From assembly GCA_014896375.1 (NCBI GenBank), contig JADBKN010000009.1, positions 75,088 to 139,087 on the forward strand: a DNA stretch of 64,000 bases. The letters are read 5' to 3'. Both the position numbers and the translations under genes were made by a program. Positions 31,038-55,793 of this stretch are shown in pieces (the stretch's first letter is position 1; each line of letters begins with the position of its first letter). The notes beneath the pieces are model-generated. The model saw only the letters and a program-made list of their open reading frames with translations, did not search any database and was not told the DNA's origin. The stretch comes from Bacillota bacterium. GTDB taxonomy: Bacteria; Bacillota; Sulfobacillia; RBS10-35; Bu92.

Positions 31038-32237
31038 ATGAGGGTGCCTCGTCTTGGTCCATGGTGGCGGCGCGGCGGGCCGTGGGCGCTGGCGGTGGCC
31101 GTGGCCTGCGCCGCGTTTCCTCCGGCGGCCCTCGCCGAAAACGGGGTCGTGGCGCAGGCCCCGGGCGCGCCGGAGATCGCCTCGCCGTCGGCCGTGCTGA
31201 TGGACGCCGGCTCCGGAGAGATCCTGTATGCCAAGAACCCCCATGAGAAGCGCAACCCGGCCAGCGTGACGAAGCTCATGACGCTCGCCGTCCTCTATGA
31301 TGCCGTGGCGGCGGGCGAGGTCCACTGGGACGATCCCGTCACGGCCAGCGAGCACGCGGCCAGCATGGGCGGCTCCCAGGTGTTCCTCGCGGCGGGCGAG
31401 ACGTTTCCCCTCAAGGACATGACGGCGGCCGTGGCCGTGGCCTCCGCCAACGACGCCGCGATGGCCCTGGCGGAGCACGTGGCCGGCTCGGAAGAGGCCT
31501 TCGTGAAGCGCATGCAGGCGCTCGCGGAGAAGATCGGCATGAAGGACTCGTCGTTCCGCAACCCGCATGGGCTGGACGCCGACGGGCACGTCATGAGCGC
31601 CTACGACATCGCGCTCCTCTCCCGCTACCTCGTCACCCACCACCCCGAGGTGCTGGAGATGACGAGCACGTGGATGCGGCCCTTCCGCGCGCCGCCGCGC
31701 GAGTTCATCCTCGTGAACACGAACACCTTCCTCAAGCGCTATCCCGGCGTGGACGGCCTCAAGACGGGCTGGACCAGCCAGGCCGGCTGGAGCGTGAGCA
31801 TCACGGCGGTACGGGGGGCCACGCGGCTCATCGCGGTGGTGATCGGCGCCGCGACCTCCGACCAGCGCTGGGCGGACGTGCGCAAGCTCCTCGACTGGGG
31901 CTTCGCCACCTTCGAGACGGTGCCCGTCGCCCAGGCGGGTGAGGTGCTGCGCGAGATCCCGGTCGACAAAGGCGTGGCGCGGCAGGTGGCGGCTGTCACG
32001 CCGGACGCGGTGGCCGTGACGGTACGCAAGGGCCAGAAGCAGCGCGTGACGCAGGAGGTGGACCTGCCGGCCCGCGTGCCCGCACCTGTGGCCGCCGGCC
32101 AGCGCCTCGGCACGATCACGGTGAAGGTCGAGGGCAAGGTGGTGCGCGAAGCGCCCCTTGTGGCGGGGGCCGCCAGTCCGCGCGCGGGCTACGGGCTGCT
32201 CTTCCGGCGCATCCTGGAGGCGGCCTGGCCCTGGTGA
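31038..32237 (+). CDS. dacF: D-alanyl-D-alanine carboxypeptidase (S11/PBP5 family), DacF-like
   Basis: Signal peptide. Active-site SxxK (NPASVTKLMT), SxN and KTG (GLKTGWT) motifs. Directly upstream of spoIIAA-spoIIAB-sigF as in B. subtilis. Confidence 0.85.
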   Translation: MRVPRLGPWWRRGGPWALAVAVACAAFPPAALAENGVVAQAPGAPEIASPSAVLMDAGSGEILYAKNPHEKRNPASVTKLMTLAVLYDAVAAGEVHWDDPVTASEHAASMGGSQVFLAAGETFPLKDMTAAVAVASANDAAMALAEHVAGSEEAFVKRMQALAEKIGMKDSSFRNPHGLDADGHVMSAYDIALLSRYLVTHHPEVLEMTSTWMRPFRAPPREFILVNTNTFLKRYPGVDGLKTGWTSQAGWSVSITAVRGATRLIAVVIGAATSDQRWADVRKLLDWGFATFETVPVAQAGEVLREIPVDKGVARQVAAVTPDAVAVTVRKGQKQRVTQEVDLPARVPAPVAAGQRLGTITVKVEGKVVREAPLVAGAASPRAGYGLLFRRILEAAWPW

Positions 32238-50497: not shown

Positions 50498-51658
50498 ATG
50501 GCCAACTTCGATGTGATCATCGTCGGCGGCGGCGCCGTCGGCGTCAGCGTGGCACGCACACTGGTGGGGGAGGGCGTGAGGGGCGTGGCGCTCTTGGAGC
50601 GCGCGCACCTCGCGGCCGGCTTCACCTCCCGTGCGGCGGGCATCGTCTCCGCGCTGACGTGGGATCCTACGGACGCCCGGCTTGTCACGCGCTCGGCGGA
50701 GATCTACCGGCAGGTGGCCGCCGACCATCCCGGCCGCTTCCGCTTCCTCGAAGGCGGCATGCTGACGCTCGTGGGCGACCGGGCGGCGGCCGCTGCGATG
50801 GACCGGCGCGCGGCCATGCTGCGCGAAGTGGGGGTACGCGTGGAGCGGCTCCATCCGGAAGAGGCGGCCGCGCGCTGGCCCGACCTGCGCCTGGACGGCG
50901 TGGTCGCCGCCTGGTTCACGCCGGACGACGGCCACGTCTACGCGTACGACTACACGACGGTGGTGGGAGAGGAGATCGCAGCGCGCGGCGTGCGCATCGT
51001 CCGGGACACGGCGGCGGCGCGCGTGGCCATCGAGGGCGGGCGCGCGGCCGGCGTGGAGACGGCCGGCGGCGAGCGCCTCGCGGCAGACGTCGTCGTGGCG
51101 GCGAACGGCGTCTGGAGCCGCAAGCTCCTGCGCGCCTCCGGGCTCGACCTGCCACTTAAGCCCTACCGCACCCAGGTGGCGGTCCTCGAGGCGCCGGAGG
51201 CGCCGCGTGTGCCGATCCTGCACGACACAAGCCTCGAGTTCTACTGGATCCCCGACGGGCGCAAGATCATCTTCGGCGACGGGACGGAAGAGAGGGAGTC
51301 GGACCCGGACGCCTTCTTTGACGCGAACGACGAGGACTTCCTGCTCTCCGTGGCCGAGCGCCTGCCGCGGCGCTGCGCCGGCGGGGCGTCGGCGCGGCTG
51401 ACGGGCGGCTGGGCCGGCCTCTGCGACGCCACGCCGGACCGGCGACCGCTCCTCGGGCCGTACGGCGGCGTGGAGGGGCTGCACCTGGCCGTCGGCTTCA
51501 ACGGCTTCGGCGTGATGCGCGCGCCGGCTGTGGGCGAGGCCGTCGCGCGCCTCGTCCTCGGCCGGCCGGCGGGGCTCGACCTCGCCACGCACCTCGCGCG
51601 GCGGTTCTCGGGCTTCGTCGACTTCCCCATCACGCAAGGGTTCAGCACGGTGGAGTGA
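50498..51658 (+). CDS. FAD-dependent oxidoreductase (DAO family; sarcosine/D-amino-acid/opine oxidase-like)
   Basis: N-terminal dinucleotide-binding motif DVIIVGGGAVGVSVA and a DAO-family C-terminus (…GLHLAVGFNGFGVMRAPAVGEAVA…). Confidence 0.8.
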   Translation: MANFDVIIVGGGAVGVSVARTLVGEGVRGVALLERAHLAAGFTSRAAGIVSALTWDPTDARLVTRSAEIYRQVAADHPGRFRFLEGGMLTLVGDRAAAAAMDRRAAMLREVGVRVERLHPEEAAARWPDLRLDGVVAAWFTPDDGHVYAYDYTTVVGEEIAARGVRIVRDTAAARVAIEGGRAAGVETAGGERLAADVVVAANGVWSRKLLRASGLDLPLKPYRTQVAVLEAPEAPRVPILHDTSLEFYWIPDGRKIIFGDGTEERESDPDAFFDANDEDFLLSVAERLPRRCAGGASARLTGGWAGLCDATPDRRPLLGPYGGVEGLHLAVGFNGFGVMRAPAVGEAVARLVLGRPAGLDLATHLARRFSGFVDFPITQGFSTVE

Positions 51659-52586
51659 GGCGCGCGGCGGCGCCCAGCCGCAAGACGGCCAGCTCCCTGC
51701 GGCACGCGTCCTCAAGGAGACGGGCGGCCTCCCGCAGCGCTTCCGCCTCCTCAAGCGGGCCGGGGCAGATGGAGGTCACGGCCACCTCTCCGGGGACGAT
51801 GCAGTCCAGCGCCCCCGGGCCGAGGGCGCCGGCGAGGATGAGGACGGGCCGGCCCAGACGACGCGCCCGCTCCGCCACAGCCCAGGGCAGCTTTCCCATG
51901 CGTGTCTGCGCGTCCACGCGCCCCTCGCCGGTGAGGACCACGTCCGCCCAGGCGGCGAGGCGATCGAAGCCGGCGAGGTCGAGGAGCGCCGGCGCGCCCG
52001 GCCGCAGGCGCGCGCCCAGCGCCGCCAGCATGAAGCCGAGCCCGCCGGCCGCGCCGGCGCCCGGCAGGTCGCGCAGGCGCTGACCGGCCGCAGCTTCCGC
52101 GTGGTCGGCGAGGAGGCGCAGGCGCTCGTCGAACTCGGGCACGTCCTCGGCGCGCAGGCCCTTCTGCGGTCCAAACACGGCCGCTGCTCCGCACGGGCCG
52201 CAGAGCGGGGCGTCGACGTCGGCGAGGGCCACGATCTCCACGCCGCCGAGCGCCTCCCGACCCGGCCAGCGCAGGCCGCGGACACGCGGCAGCGCGAGGC
52301 GCCCGGGCTCCGGGGGCGGGTCGGCCGCGCCGCCGAGCGCCATGAGGCAGCCGAGGCCGCCGTCGACCGTCGCGCTGCCGCCGAGACCCACGTACACGCG
52401 GCGCGCGCCGGCAGCCAGGACGGCTCGCAGGAGGGCCCCGACGCCGTAGCTGGAGGCGCGCGTGGGATCGCGCCGCTCCGGCGGCAGGCCCGCCAGCCCG
52501 ATCACCTCCGCCGTGTCGAAGGCGGCCTCGCCGCCGGGGAGCTCCGCCCACCGAACGGCCTTGGGCCGGCCCCAGGCGTCCGGCAC
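51642..52586 (-). pseudogene. glxK: Glycerate kinase (GlxK/GckA family), N-terminally truncated. About 55 aa are missing, including the ADGGEGT motif.
   Basis: The ORF aligns with GlxK from about residue 60 onward (…GRPKAVRWAELPGG… ~ GEPVTARYGWLPDG; …GLGGSATVDGGLG…; C-terminal …MGKLPW…). The only available start is a GTG. An in-frame stop lies 18 codons upstream, and no frame encodes the conserved N-terminus. Confidence 0.6.
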
Positions 52587-52599
52587 CGTCTCCCGGCGC

Positions 52600-53282
52600 C
52601 AGCGGCTGGTGCGATCGCCTCGACGCCTCGCTCGTCAGCTTGGCGATGATGCCGAAGGGGAGAACACCACCGTGATCGCGAGGATGCCGTGGTCAGCCCG
52701 AGGCCGACAAGGGCGACGAACAGGGCGGCAAGAGCAGTTTGATCGTCGGAGAACGTTCATCACGCCCCGGGCAAGGCCGTAGACAGGCCGGTTCGGCGTG
52801 ACGTTCCGGGCGATGGCGAAGATGATCAGGACGCTCATCAGGGCGCCGAGCGTCATGCCGGGCAGCCATCACGGATCGTCTCGAGACGGCCCGGGAGGAC
52901 CTTCAGCATGTACGGCCGGATTCGGCGACAAAAGCGCCGGAAGCGCATCATGGGGCGCTCCAGAGCGAGCCGGCCAACGTCGAGACCGAGGTGCCACCCG
53001 GAAGCGACGAGGGCCGCGGCGAAGAAACAGGGCGGACGCCCACCGCTGTAGGCCCAGGGCGGCGCCGGAAGGGAGCCGCTTCCGGCGGCCGACGTTCACT
53101 TTTTCACGGGAGCACCGTCCTTTTGCCGGAGCGCTCATAAGGGGCATCGCCGGCCGGAACCTCGTCGGGAAGGCGGAACGCCCCTCGGCCTTTGTTCCGC
53201 CTCCGGGCGTCCATCCGGCGGCGGCAAGTTCGGCAAGCCAGATCTCGGCAAAACGTCGTCCGTCGCCGCCTCGACCGAGGGC
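52600..53282 (-). pseudogene. Decayed remnant of a membrane-transporter-like gene. Hydrophobic ORF pieces are split over three frames.
   Basis: The minus strand encodes fragments such as SGSLPAPPWAYSGGRPPCFFAAALVASGWHLGLDVG, MTLGALMSVLIIFAIARNVTPNRPVYGLARGVMNVL and ALAALFVALVGLGLTT in different frames, separated by stops. No intact ORF exists. Confidence 0.35.
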
Positions 53283-53831
<549 letters not shown>

Positions 53832-54002
53832 GTAAGATCCAAAGAGCCTGTCCGGCTCCTCTGACTTCTCTCTCACCCGCTGCCGCCCCAGCCTTCGCCG
53901 GTCCGGCAACGGTTCAAGGGCCGCCTCGCTCTCTCACGCTGTTCAGTTTTCAAGGATCGGGTCGTCTTCCGCCGGAGCCGTCCGGCGTCCGGCGGTTTTA
54001 AA

Positions 54003-54215: not shown

Positions 54216-55793
54216 TCAGCCTTCGCCGTCGCCCGCCGCCCCGTCGCCGTCCACCGTCGCGCCGTCACCGTCGCCCGTCGCGCCATCGCCGTCCGTTTCC
54301 GCGGCGCCGTCCTCTTCCGCATCCGCCGCGGCTGAACCGCCCGGCGCGCGCGGGCGCATAAGCGGGAAGAGGATGACATCGCGGATGGAGGGCGAGTTCG
54401 TGAGCAGCATCACGAGGCGGTCGACGCCGATGCCGAGCCCGCCGGTGGGCGGCATGCCGTACTCCAGCGCCTTCAGGAAGTCCTCGTCAAGCTCCGGCGA
54501 TTCCAAGTCGCCGCGCCGCCGATCCTCCATCTGGCGCTCGAAGCGCTCGCGCTGGTCGTCGGGGTCGTTCAGCTCGGTGAAGGCGTTCGCGATCTCCATG
54601 CCGTGCACGATCGCCTCGAAGCGATATGTGAGGTCCGGATTGTCGCGCTTGCGCATGGCGAGCGGCGAGATCTCCGTGGGATGGTCGAGAAGGAACGTCG
54701 GCTGGACGAGCTCCGGCTGGACGAGCTCGCTGACGAGCTCGTCGATGACCTTGCCCCGCGTGGCCGTCTCCTCGACATGCACACCCAGCGAGCGGGCCAG
54801 GCGGCGCGCGGAGGCGTCGTCCGGCATGTCCTCCAGGCGCACGCCCTTGCCGGCGAGGGCCTCGATCATCGAGAGGCGGCGCCACGGCGGGGCGAAGTCG
54901 ATTTCCACGTCCCCGTAGCGCACGCGCGTGGACCCGGTGACGCGCTCGGCCACGCGCGCCACCATGTGCTCCGTGAGCTCCATGATGTCCTCGTAGTCGG
55001 CGTAGGCCTGGTAGCACTCCATCATCGTGAACTCGGGGTTGTGGCGCGTCGACACGCCCTCGTTGCGGAAGACGCGGCCGATCTCGTAGACGCGCTCGAG
55101 CCCGCCGACGATCAGGCGCTTGAGGTACAGCTCGAGCGCGATGCGCAGGTAGAGCGTCATGTCGAGGGCGTTGTGGTGCGTGACGAACGGGCGCGCGTGC
55201 GCGCCGCCGGCGAGCGGCGTGAGGACCGGCGTCTCCACCTCGATGAAGCCGCGTTCATCCAGGAAGGCGCGCATCTCTCGCAGCACGCCCGCCCGCGCGA
55301 TGAACGTCTGACGCACGCCGGGGTTGACGATGAGGTCGAGGTAGCGCTCACGATAGCGGCGGTCGACGTCCTTCAGGCCGTGCCACTTCTCCGGAAGAGG
55401 TCGCAGCGACTTGGTGAGGAGCGTGAGCTCCCGCACCTCCACGCTGTCCTCGCCGCGGCGAGTGCGCATGACGGTGCCGCGCGCGCCCACGATGTCGCCG
55501 AGGTCGAGCAGCGGCAGGAGCGTCTCGAAGCCGCCGGTGGCGTCGGCGCGCATGTAGAGCTGGACGCGGCCCGTGCGGTCCTGCAGGTCGGCGAAGGCCG
55601 CCCGGCCGTGCACGCGCAGCGCCATGAGGCGCCCGGCGACGCTGACCTCGCAGCCTTCGAGCTCCGCAAAGCGCTCGTGGACGTCCTCGGCGTGGGCCGA
55701 CGTCTCATAGCGCGACCCGAACGGGTCGACGCCCAGCGCGCGCAACGCCGCGAGCTTCTCGCGGCGCGCGCGCGTCACATCGCTCTCCGCCAC
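54216..55793 (-). CDS. lysS: Lysine--tRNA ligase (class II), with an acidic Gly/Asp-rich C-terminal tail
   Basis: N-terminal anticodon-binding OB (…GRLMALRVHGRAAFADLQDRTGRVQLY…) and class II motifs (…FRNEGVSTRHNPEFTMMECYQAY…, …GGLGIGVDRLVMLL…). Confidence 0.9.
   Translation of the reverse strand: MAESDVTRARREKLAALRALGVDPFGSRYETSAHAEDVHERFAELEGCEVSVAGRLMALRVHGRAAFADLQDRTGRVQLYMRADATGGFETLLPLLDLGDIVGARGTVMRTRRGEDSVEVRELTLLTKSLRPLPEKWHGLKDVDRRYRERYLDLIVNPGVRQTFIARAGVLREMRAFLDERGFIEVETPVLTPLAGGAHARPFVTHHNALDMTLYLRIALELYLKRLIVGGLERVYEIGRVFRNEGVSTRHNPEFTMMECYQAYADYEDIMELTEHMVARVAERVTGSTRVRYGDVEIDFAPPWRRLSMIEALAGKGVRLEDMPDDASARRLARSLGVHVEETATRGKVIDELVSELVQPELVQPTFLLDHPTEISPLAMRKRDNPDLTYRFEAIVHGMEIANAFTELNDPDDQRERFERQMEDRRRGDLESPELDEDFLKALEYGMPPTGGLGIGVDRLVMLLTNSPSIRDVILFPLMRPRAPGGSAAADAEEDGAAETDGDGATGDGDGATVDGDGAAGDGEG

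Follow-up and report, generated by a model that had tools for sequence, protein, structure and literature searches.

The 64,000-nucleotide stretch of contig analysed here (the window) most likely contains an assembly artefact rather than a decaying locus, with a raw-quality piece of phnC and phnE from Hydrogenibacillus schlegelii lying between two native pieces of the contig. The features on which this reading is built are listed below, where L004 is the H. schlegelii MAG Bu28 (GCA_014896515.1) and L001 is a sequence from a relative of the window organism.

50498 to 51658, plus strand: intact, native FAD-dependent oxidoreductase of the DAO family (PF01266, E 1e-58).
51642 to 52604, minus strand: native glxK, codons ~57-379 only (annotated ORF 51642-52586, GenBank MBE3589706.1, 314 aa).
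52599 to 52604, no strand assigned: junction A (phnE'/glxK'), CGCTGG on the minus strand, covered by both the L004 alignment (which ends at 52599) and the L001 alignment (which starts at 52604).
52599 to 53107, minus strand: patch part 2, the first 173 of the 266 codons of phnE (the phosphonate ABC permease gene of H. schlegelii), with ~27 indels (alignment to L004 1912-2428).
53104 to 53283, minus strand: patch part 1, ~59 codons from the 3' end of phnC (the phosphonate ABC ATPase gene of H. schlegelii), interrupted by 6 indels (L004 1737-1915 aligned to window 53277-53104).
53284 to 53828, minus strand: native 16S rRNA, 5' part only, model positions 9 to ~533 (Rfam RF00177, 445 bits).
54216 to 55793, minus strand: lysS, native right-flank context (91% identical to P0130).

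Membership of the truncated ORF in the glycerate kinase family was supported by scores above the cut-offs of both Pfam Gly_kinase PF02595 (275 bits, cut-off 23.3, E 1e-81) and NCBIfam TIGR00045 (226 bits, cut-off 168.45). The ORF covered profile positions 65-366 of 372 and 80-371 of 375, respectively, and lacked both the full length of the family (~370-380 aa) and its ADGG(E/P)GT N-terminus. Alignment to a full-length GlxK orthologue (P0002, 379 aa, 75% identity) starts at residue 57, corresponding to window position 52604, and residues 57-369 of the L001 GlxK mapped by tblastn to window 52604-51666 in a single frame without gaps. Residues 1-56 of the orthologue, including LADGGPGT, are absent from the window glxK, and no DGGxG or ADGG motif was present in the six frames of 52560-53900. 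An earlier note, made from the letters alone, had described an ORF starting well inside the family with the ADGGEGT N-terminus absent in every frame, and both observations were borne out, with ~56 N-terminal codons missing. The in-frame stop that it reported upstream of the gene is also present, at 17 rather than 18 codons from the GTG start.

Upstream of glxK, the 679 bases from 52605 to 53283 (the patch) correspond to the 3' end of H. schlegelii phnC followed by the first 173 codons of phnE. L004 1737-2428 aligned with window 53277-52599, that is, from junction to junction over ~690 bp, and this alignment is far beyond chance. Of 23 sites that differ between two H. schlegelii strains, 20 have the Bu28 allele in the window. 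The GC contents of the patch and of L004 are 68.0% and 66.3%, and those of the left and right flanks 72.4% and 73.0%. Hydrophobic, permease-like peptides were found distributed over three minus-strand frames of 52600-53110, with GC3 phase switches at ~52865, 52750 and 52690, in agreement with the earlier description of ~700 bp of such peptides split over three frames. With ~27 indels in 509 bp and at least three frame switches, phnE does not form a single ORF. The stitched permease peptide matched P0121, whose 90% cluster is H. schlegelii PhnE, at 68% identity (E 8e-38). Against the PhnE profile TIGR01097 it scored 50 bits, under the cut-off of 216.7, and spanned only positions 14-149 of 252, while the donor protein (P0126) scored 292 bits against the same profile and L004 1052-1915 scored 354 bits against TIGR02315 ABC_phnC. 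The family emerged from a large protein search; Pfam scans of the small single ORFs and of the stitched peptide gave no match.

The transporter families first proposed for this region, GntP, DcuC and TRAP, gave no Pfam match for the translated frames at E up to 10. The significant relatives were PhnE proteins only, and the patch is instead a PhnE-type ABC permease (BPD_transp_1) with a PhnC tail. Its DNA is homologous to H. schlegelii phnC-phnE, whose proteins exceed the NCBIfam cut-offs. However, relative to a PhnCDE transporter the window holds only PhnC residues ~229-287 and PhnE residues 1-173, interrupted by ~33 indels, and the patch has neither phnD nor a second phnE; it cannot encode a transporter. 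No repeat or paralogue of the patch was found within the window by self-comparison. An IS element or MITE and a 16S intervening sequence were also considered as the nature of the patch and rejected, because it is collinear with phnC-phnE and terminal repeats are absent.

The differences between the patch and Bu28 do not resemble evolutionary divergence. Over ~690 bp we counted 27-32 mismatches and 30-33 indel events, an error level of ~9-11% that consists mostly of indels, with many one-base length changes in short runs. The 33 indels comprise 22 deletions and 11 insertions, while the mismatches within phnE are divided 8/9/5 among the three codon positions, without codon-position bias, and 18 of the 27 mismatches are transitions. 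In blastn, the ratio of gap openings to mismatches was 30:32 (0.94) for the patch. Comparisons of the window with its true relatives gave 42:1299 and 51:1576, and the non-coding lysS-16S spacer gave 4:35. Genuine divergence in the flanks therefore gives ratios of 0.03-0.11, and the patch exceeds the coding divergence of the same lineage ~30-fold and its non-coding divergence ~8-fold. Proteins of relatives, 19 in number, map onto the flanks in one frame each, with no frameshift in ~14 kb. The indel-rich errors are thus limited to the patch and the flanks are clean, as would be expected of an unpolished long-read patch, and the patch departs from the mutation spectrum of neutral divergence, in which substitutions far outnumber indels.

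These results bear directly on true gene decay, by which glxK would have lost its 5' end and an adjoining native transporter gene would have become a frameshifted pseudogene. In the deposited sequence, glxK is indeed truncated at its 5' end and the permease fragment contains several frameshifts, and the locus shares multiple frameshifts, truncated genes and the lack of codon-position bias with neutral-decay pseudogenes, for example those of Mycobacterium leprae or Rickettsia. However, indels here are as frequent as substitutions (0.94, versus 0.03-0.11 in the lineage). The permease fragment is not native either: it follows the allele of the co-resident H. schlegelii at those 20 of 23 sites, its composition is unlike that of the flanks, and the position upstream of glxK is occupied in L001 by Peptidase_S11. 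Furthermore, only 173 of 266 phnE codons and a phnC tail are present, between sharply cut junctions, and all neighboring genes checked are intact, leaving a patch from another species of the same sample between untouched flanks. Decay is accordingly scarcely credible. Where the earlier note left a choice between decay and local sequence-quality problems, the former is contradicted, and the latter is favored by the foreign DNA, the ratio of 0.94 and the absence of codon-position bias. The outcome that it named as refuting decay, a corrected consensus with one intact permease and a full-length glxK, would not arise as framed, as correction of the patch yields only ~60% of a foreign phnE with a phnC tail and the contig does not hold the glxK 5' end. 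If the patch is an artefactual copy of another species' genes, the locus is an ordinary one and not a case of gene decay.

Both flanks are native and come from one organism. On the left, the DAO gene converges on glxK with a 17-bp overlap, its protein is 83% identical to the L001 orthologue over 386 of 386 aa in a single frame, and L001 7135-13932 aligned by blastn with window 52604-45783 at 79.8%. On the right, a second relative (L006) is collinear with window 63997-54352, its contig stopping ~25 nt before the position where the window 16S starts; the window LysS matches Thermaerobacter LysS at 65%, and lysS followed by the rrn operon is a conserved arrangement in the lineage. Each flank aligns with a relative (L001 or L006) at ~80-82% nucleotide identity. 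The tetranucleotide correlation of the right flank with segments of the left is 0.81-0.88, a range also seen among the left segments themselves, versus 0.59-0.69 with H. schlegelii. In L001, full-length glxK is preceded by Peptidase_S11, UPF0182 and AsnS and not by lysS and 16S, and we infer that the two flanks lie apart in the genome itself.

A larger binning or cross-species chimera, in which the whole right flank (16S, lysS, greA onward) or the whole left flank would stem from a different organism, could account for the break in synteny with relatives exactly at the patch. We consider it very unlikely, given that tetranucleotide composition and GC do not distinguish the two flanks, that each flank has relatives at the identities given above, and that neither LysS nor the 16S V3 region is that of H. 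schlegelii. An H. schlegelii origin of the right flank in particular was ruled out by composition, by the relatives of LysS and by the V3 region.

The 16S fragment ends as abruptly as glxK. The locus does lie between an intact FAD oxidoreductase and a truncated 16S gene, as had been noted (PF01266; RF00177). Rfam RF00177 places the fragment at 53273-53828 and model positions 9-546, short of a complete gene of ~1530 nt, but real homology stops at 53284: the alignment is clean to ACGUAGG and spurious beyond, the tail to position 546 having low posterior probability and non-standard pairs. The boundary between patch and 16S (junction B) is therefore 53283/53284. This break falls inside the universal 515-533 stretch, and the last 48 nt of the fragment (53331-53284) are identical to Otu1, the dominant H. 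schlegelii 16S (3663x coverage). The donor 16S is not adjacent to the donor phnC in L004. At the other end of the patch, the shared bases at junction A represent a possible microhomology of 6-8 nt. Comparison of the window 16S V3 region with the OTUs in the portion of Table S1 consulted (PMC10215811) gave no identical OTU.

The window most likely belongs to a high-GC Bacillota MAG recovered from sample Bu22-1. This assignment is based on the exact DAO protein, which is encoded by a Logan contig from the Illumina run of that sample (SRR24392716), and on accession numbering, the window GlxK (MBE3589706.1) being close in the MBE35 series to the Bu28 PhnE (MBE3564054.1). Neither the truncated GlxK nor LysS had an exact match in the contig index, and a scan of genome contigs with GlxK returned only an unrelated Verrucomicrobiales locus. 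Two MAGs of the study agree with the window in GC, Bu05 (assembled with Flye) and Bu92 (hybrid metaSPAdes with Npscarf); GC and the LysS match to Thermaerobacter favor Bu92, while the spacing of protein accessions and the rRNA genes listed in Table S2 favor Bu05. The published study lists Bu28 as GCA_014896515.1 and SRR24392716 as the Illumina run (Table S3), and reports that H. schlegelii makes up 32.7% of the coal-fire gas-vent metagenome of sample Bu22-1 (PMC10215811). The window organism is a minor community member at 0.2-2%. The source of the patch was thus present in the same sequenced sample, as indicated by Bu28, the DAO protein in SRR24392716 and the 32.7% share. In the same study (Kadnikov et al. 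2023), MinION R9.4 and Illumina reads were combined in hybrid metaSPAdes, followed by Npscarf scaffolding and gap filling, and four MAGs were assembled instead by Flye with two Pilon rounds (PMC10215811); the pipeline therefore did add long-read sequence. The MinION data comprised 8,444,927 reads and 4.88 Gbp, with a mean of ~578 bp (PMC10215811). With fragments this short, concatemer reads should arise more readily, and the length of the patch is roughly that of a single fragment.

On this basis, one native piece would consist of DeoC and the genes before it, an ABC amino-acid transporter, the DAO gene and glxK codons 57-379, and the other of greA, lysS and 16S positions 1-533, with the bridge between them being a 679-bp unpolished, Nanopore-quality copy of H. 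schlegelii phnC'-phnE'. The bridging molecule was probably a chimeric read, and the most likely origin would be a chimeric (concatemer) MinION read that served as bridge or gap filler in long-read or hybrid assembly and scaffolding. The patch may have been left unpolished because reads from the organism it came from align preferentially to the genuine H. schlegelii contig. The truncated glxK and the truncated 16S would then be junction artefacts, and the frameshifts in the transporter would be sequencing errors over a foreign gene fragment.

The patch resembles chimeric joins and unpolished long-read gap fills, as can arise with hybrid metaSPAdes, npScarf or Flye with Pilon, in being a short raw stretch of R9.4-like quality with more deletions than insertions and ~10% of bases differing. 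The clean flanks, the origin of the patch from the most abundant community member and the position of one break in a universal 16S region are further points of likeness, and exactly these tools appear in the methods of the study (PMC10215811). However, a usual cross-species 16S chimera continues into the 16S of another organism, whereas here an unrelated protein-coding fragment follows the break. In addition, a single minor genome supplied both flanks, so that a read concatenated from several fragments, or else a real insertion, would be required. Since that organism accounts for only 0.2-2%, a random concatemer of three fragments (window organism, H. schlegelii, window organism) is a priori uncommon; by a rough estimate, a few such reads would be expected for an organism at 2% and far fewer than one for an organism at 0.2%.

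It is this feature, two flanks from one rare genome, that a random chimera does not readily give and that favors a real insertion, in which a 680-bp H. schlegelii phnC-phnE fragment would have entered recently between the truncated 16S and glxK by illegitimate, microhomology-mediated recombination, the frameshifts still being Nanopore errors. In such a case the Illumina graph path would have collapsed into the 3663x H. schlegelii edge and the gap would have been closed with a few raw long reads. A low-coverage path cut from that edge in a hybrid de Bruijn assembly and then gap-filled could leave the same raw-quality patch, and the contig breaks do coincide exactly with the limits of the foreign DNA, as disconnection by relative coverage in a metagenome graph would give. 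The possible 6-8 nt of microhomology at junction A would be seen more often after recombination or template switching than after blunt ligation, and as the dominant neighbor in the sample, the donor would be a likely source of environmental DNA. Uptake of foreign DNA by illegitimate or homology-facilitated illegitimate recombination has been described in naturally transformable bacteria, and the patch shares with such events a short foreign segment, sharp junctions, possible microhomology at one junction and a donor abundant in the habitat. However, no homologous anchor is evident here, the donor 16S and phnC lie apart in L004, and the junction is known from one assembly.

Taken as a whole, this explanation is unlikely. 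A real insertion would need a deletion destroying the rrn operon and a metabolic gene at once. Junction B lies in the most conserved 16S stretch and in an exact match to the donor 16S, as would follow from assembly or alignment more readily than from recombination at a random site. The ~9-11% error also resembles a single read, while the consensus of all reads over a fixed genomic feature should be cleaner, particularly for Bu05, with an estimated MinION depth of ~35x. Finally, the junction appears in no independent assembly, the truncated GlxK (P0001) forming a one-member cluster from one contig. That a Limnochordia/Thermaerobacteria-like vent bacterium very recently captured the 680-bp phnC-phnE fragment, with deletion of the distal rrn operon and the glxK 5' end, is accordingly quite improbable, and we favor the assembly artefact.

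The importance of this finding lies mainly in data quality, as an inter-species patch appears to be present in a public 178.6-kb MAG contig, which probably also contains a false join. The 314-aa "glycerate kinase" MBE3589706.1 in GenBank/nr likely owes its truncation to an artefact, and pseudogene counts, synteny analyses and screens for horizontal gene transfer on this MAG would be misled. Such patches can be recognized by a simple diagnostic, namely a short stretch between clean flanks that alone shows a gap to mismatch ratio of ~1 when compared with a co-assembled genome. A real insertion, if true, would be of modest interest as an example of DNA acquired very recently from a dominant neighbor; were the junctions real, inter-class DNA capture in a natural thermophilic community would have been observed close to the moment of the event.

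The locus lies in a window with an overall GC content of 72.4%, and three features frame it.

51642-52586, minus strand: glycerate kinase gene (glxK) without its N-terminus, 314 aa (Pfam PF02595, NCBIfam TIGR00045)
53273-53828, minus strand: 16S rRNA fragment (Rfam)
54216-55793: LysS, 91% identical to P0130, the LysS of a relative (contig L006, GCA_019683875.1)

The earlier note had described glxK as truncated at its N-terminus, and profile searches bore this out. The ORF covered positions 65-366 of 372 in PF02595 and 80-371 of 375 in TIGR00045; the ADGG-type N-terminus was indeed missing, with no DGGxG motif in any frame of 52560-53900, and the reported in-frame stop lay 17 codons 5' of the GTG start. 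The proposed comparison with the orthologous locus was run and identified a full-length orthologue (P0002, 379 aa, 75% identity) on Logan contig L001. There, DeoC, SBP, permease, ABC ATPase and FAD-dependent oxidoreductase (DAO) are followed by an oppositely oriented glxK, whose preceding neighbors are Peptidase_S11, UPF0182, AsnS and RodZ. Window 52604-45783 matched L001 7135-13932 at the blastn level (79.8% identity), and the GlxK protein aligned from residue 57 onward in a single frame with no gaps, the first homologous bases being CGCTGGCGCCGGGAG, coding for RWRRE. Judged from these alignments, the breakpoint is sharp, at codon 57, and the left flank is native DNA cut off abruptly within glxK.

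The same 314-aa protein is in GenBank as MBE3589706.1 ("MAG: glycerate kinase [Firmicutes bacterium]"), carried on a 178,599-bp contig; the plain name 'glycerate kinase' does not signal the ~56 missing N-terminal residues, which include the ADGG motif. The convergent glxK and DAO genes share 17 bp at the 3' end in the window (51642-51658) and 25 bp in L001 (8082-8106), a conserved overlap. A Peptidase_S11 (D-Ala-D-Ala carboxypeptidase) paralogue at window 31116-32219 showed just 36% identity to the glxK neighbor in L001, which places the true orthologous neighbor outside the window. GC content within 51750-52600 rises to 78-82%, and an Illumina-only Logan contig from the same sample (L002, 1495 bp) stops 49 nt inside the glxK 3' end, which fits poor coverage or assembly from short reads where GC content is this extreme.

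On the minus strand 5' of the glxK ORF, the hydrophobic peptides are split across frames as previously described, with GC3 phase switches at ~52865, ~52750 and ~52690. The frame-stitched peptide had one strong relative in 5.8 billion proteins, a 266-aa BPD_transp_1 protein (P0121; 68% identity, E 8e-38) whose 90% cluster is PhnE of Hydrogenibacillus schlegelii and Hydrogenibacillus sp. N12; the suggested transporter families GntP, DcuC and TRAP found no support. That cluster includes MBE3564054.1, an H. schlegelii MAG protein from contig L004 (GCA_014896515.1, JADBKG010000059.1; gene order phnD-phnC-phnE-phnE). Window 53277-52599, which covers nearly everything from the 16S junction to the glxK junction, aligned with L004 1737-2428, and the patch thus corresponds to the last ~59 phnC codons and phnE codons 1-173 of 266. 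The donor genes scored 354 bits (PhnC, TIGR02315) and 292 bits (PhnE, TIGR01097), and the stitched peptide only 50 bits against TIGR01097 (profile positions 14-149). By sequence comparison, the stretch between the flanks is foreign DNA. A second H. schlegelii-like strain (L003, Logan SRR17381996) carries ~160-167 extra bases in the phnC 3' end (positions 46-212, against L004 around 1837); they code for a Pro/Ala/Gly-rich low-complexity C-terminal extension that neither the Bu28 strain nor the window patch has.

Relative to L004, the patch showed 27 mismatches (18 transitions) and 33 indel events (22 deletions, 11 insertions) over 49 gap columns, and the phnE mismatches fell 8/9/5 by codon position. 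At sites that differ between L003 and L004, the window carried the L004 allele in 20 of 23, indicating a Bu28-type template. The blastn ratio of gap-openings to mismatches was 30:32 in the patch, against internal controls of 42:1299 and 51:1576 for the window versus real relatives and 4:35 for the non-coding lysS-16S spacer. The differences amount to ~4% substitutions, ~5% deleted bases and ~2% inserted bases, a pattern that we take to be typical of one raw R9.4 MinION read; they look like read errors rather than evolution. Of the two causes offered earlier, local sequence quality is favored, and true gene decay is extremely improbable because the patch is foreign, follows a co-resident strain and is dominated by indels.

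Beyond the patch, the reported truncated 16S was recovered as the single RNA in the entire window by Rfam, covering model positions 9-546 only; no tRNA was found in the window. Its alignment was clean to ...GCGGUAAUACGUAGG (window 53284) and spurious past that point, breaking off mid-way through the universal 515-533 stretch. Universal 16S stretches are where cross-species assembly graphs and read alignments merge. The V3 region was clearly unlike that of the Hydrogenibacillus OTU from the same sample, and the final 48 nt (53331-53284) were identical to it. Window 63997-54352 was collinear with L006 at 82% identity, and L006 (11501-11856 against window 54062-53862) stops ~25 nt short of the 16S start, indicating that lysS followed by rrn is the normal order in this lineage and that rRNA operons break its assemblies. 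The C-terminus of the 525-aa LysS is an acidic tail rich in Gly, Asp and Ala, ...GDGDGATVDGDGAAGDGEG (window 54216-54350), to which the 91%-identical relative does not align (499 aa; tblastn alignment ends at residue 481). This tail represents either a low-complexity extension specific to the lineage or a variable sequence.

Tetranucleotide correlations of the right flank with 10-kb left-flank segments (0.81-0.88) equaled the range among left segments (0.80-0.89), and either flank reached only 0.59-0.69 against H. schlegelii DNA. Nineteen proteins from the two relatives were placed on the flanks in one frame each, and ~14 kb of coding DNA held no frameshifts. The right flank, too, is native, and a larger-scale chimera joining flanks of different organisms is very improbable since composition and relatives agree.

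The probable source is the coal-fire gas-vent metagenome Bu22-1 of Kadnikov et al. 2023 (PMC10215811), in which MAG Bu28 (H. schlegelii, GCA_014896515.1; Table S3) made up 32.7% at 3663x coverage. Illumina (SRR24392716) and MinION R9.4 (SRR24392715) reads were assembled with hybrid metaSPAdes 3.13, binned with MetaBAT, then scaffolded and gap-filled by Npscarf with MinION reads mapped per MAG; four MAGs (Bu05, Bu31, Bu66, Bu77) instead used Flye 2.7 and two Pilon rounds (PMC10215811). The 8,444,927 MinION reads total 4.88 Gbp with a mean of ~578 bp (PMC10215811). Fragments this short should favor concatemer (chimeric) reads, and the length of the patch is close to that of one fragment. A Logan contig of SRR24392716 encodes the exact window DAO protein, so the window MAG and the donor genome most likely share one metagenome. 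Among the deposited MAGs, two are compatible with the window in GC content: Bu92 (Thermaerobacteria, 71.8%) and Bu05 (Limnochordaceae, 70.1%, a Flye assembly).

Most probably, two loci of the MAG were bridged by a piece of Nanopore sequence from the dominant H. schlegelii that was never polished and most likely belonged to a chimeric read. The glxK and 16S truncations would be junctions and the frameshifted transporter would reflect read error over a foreign gene fragment, left unpolished because genuine H. schlegelii reads would map better to their true contig. However, a single minor organism supplied both flanks, so random concatemers with H. schlegelii between them should be uncommon: by rough estimate, a few reads if that organism makes up 2% and far below one if it makes up 0.2%. 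Moreover, 6-8 nt at the phnE/glxK join could come from either partner. These points favor the main rival, a true insertion of the H. schlegelii fragment, with real junctions and false frameshifts; in a hybrid assembly, a low-coverage path sharing sequence with a 3663x genome would disconnect and be gap-filled from few long reads, so that an insertion could also appear at raw quality. We consider this reading unlikely.

The patch behaves like the unpolished filler known from misassembled long-read or hybrid metagenomes and does not belong with naturally decayed pseudogenes, from which it differs in both mutation spectrum and origin. As present in the window, the glxK and patch sequences do not make a functional glycerate kinase or PhnE family member, and the locus does not represent a new biological feature. 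It is useful for correcting a public MAG and an nr protein entry, and it supplies a simple diagnostic for unpolished foreign patches.
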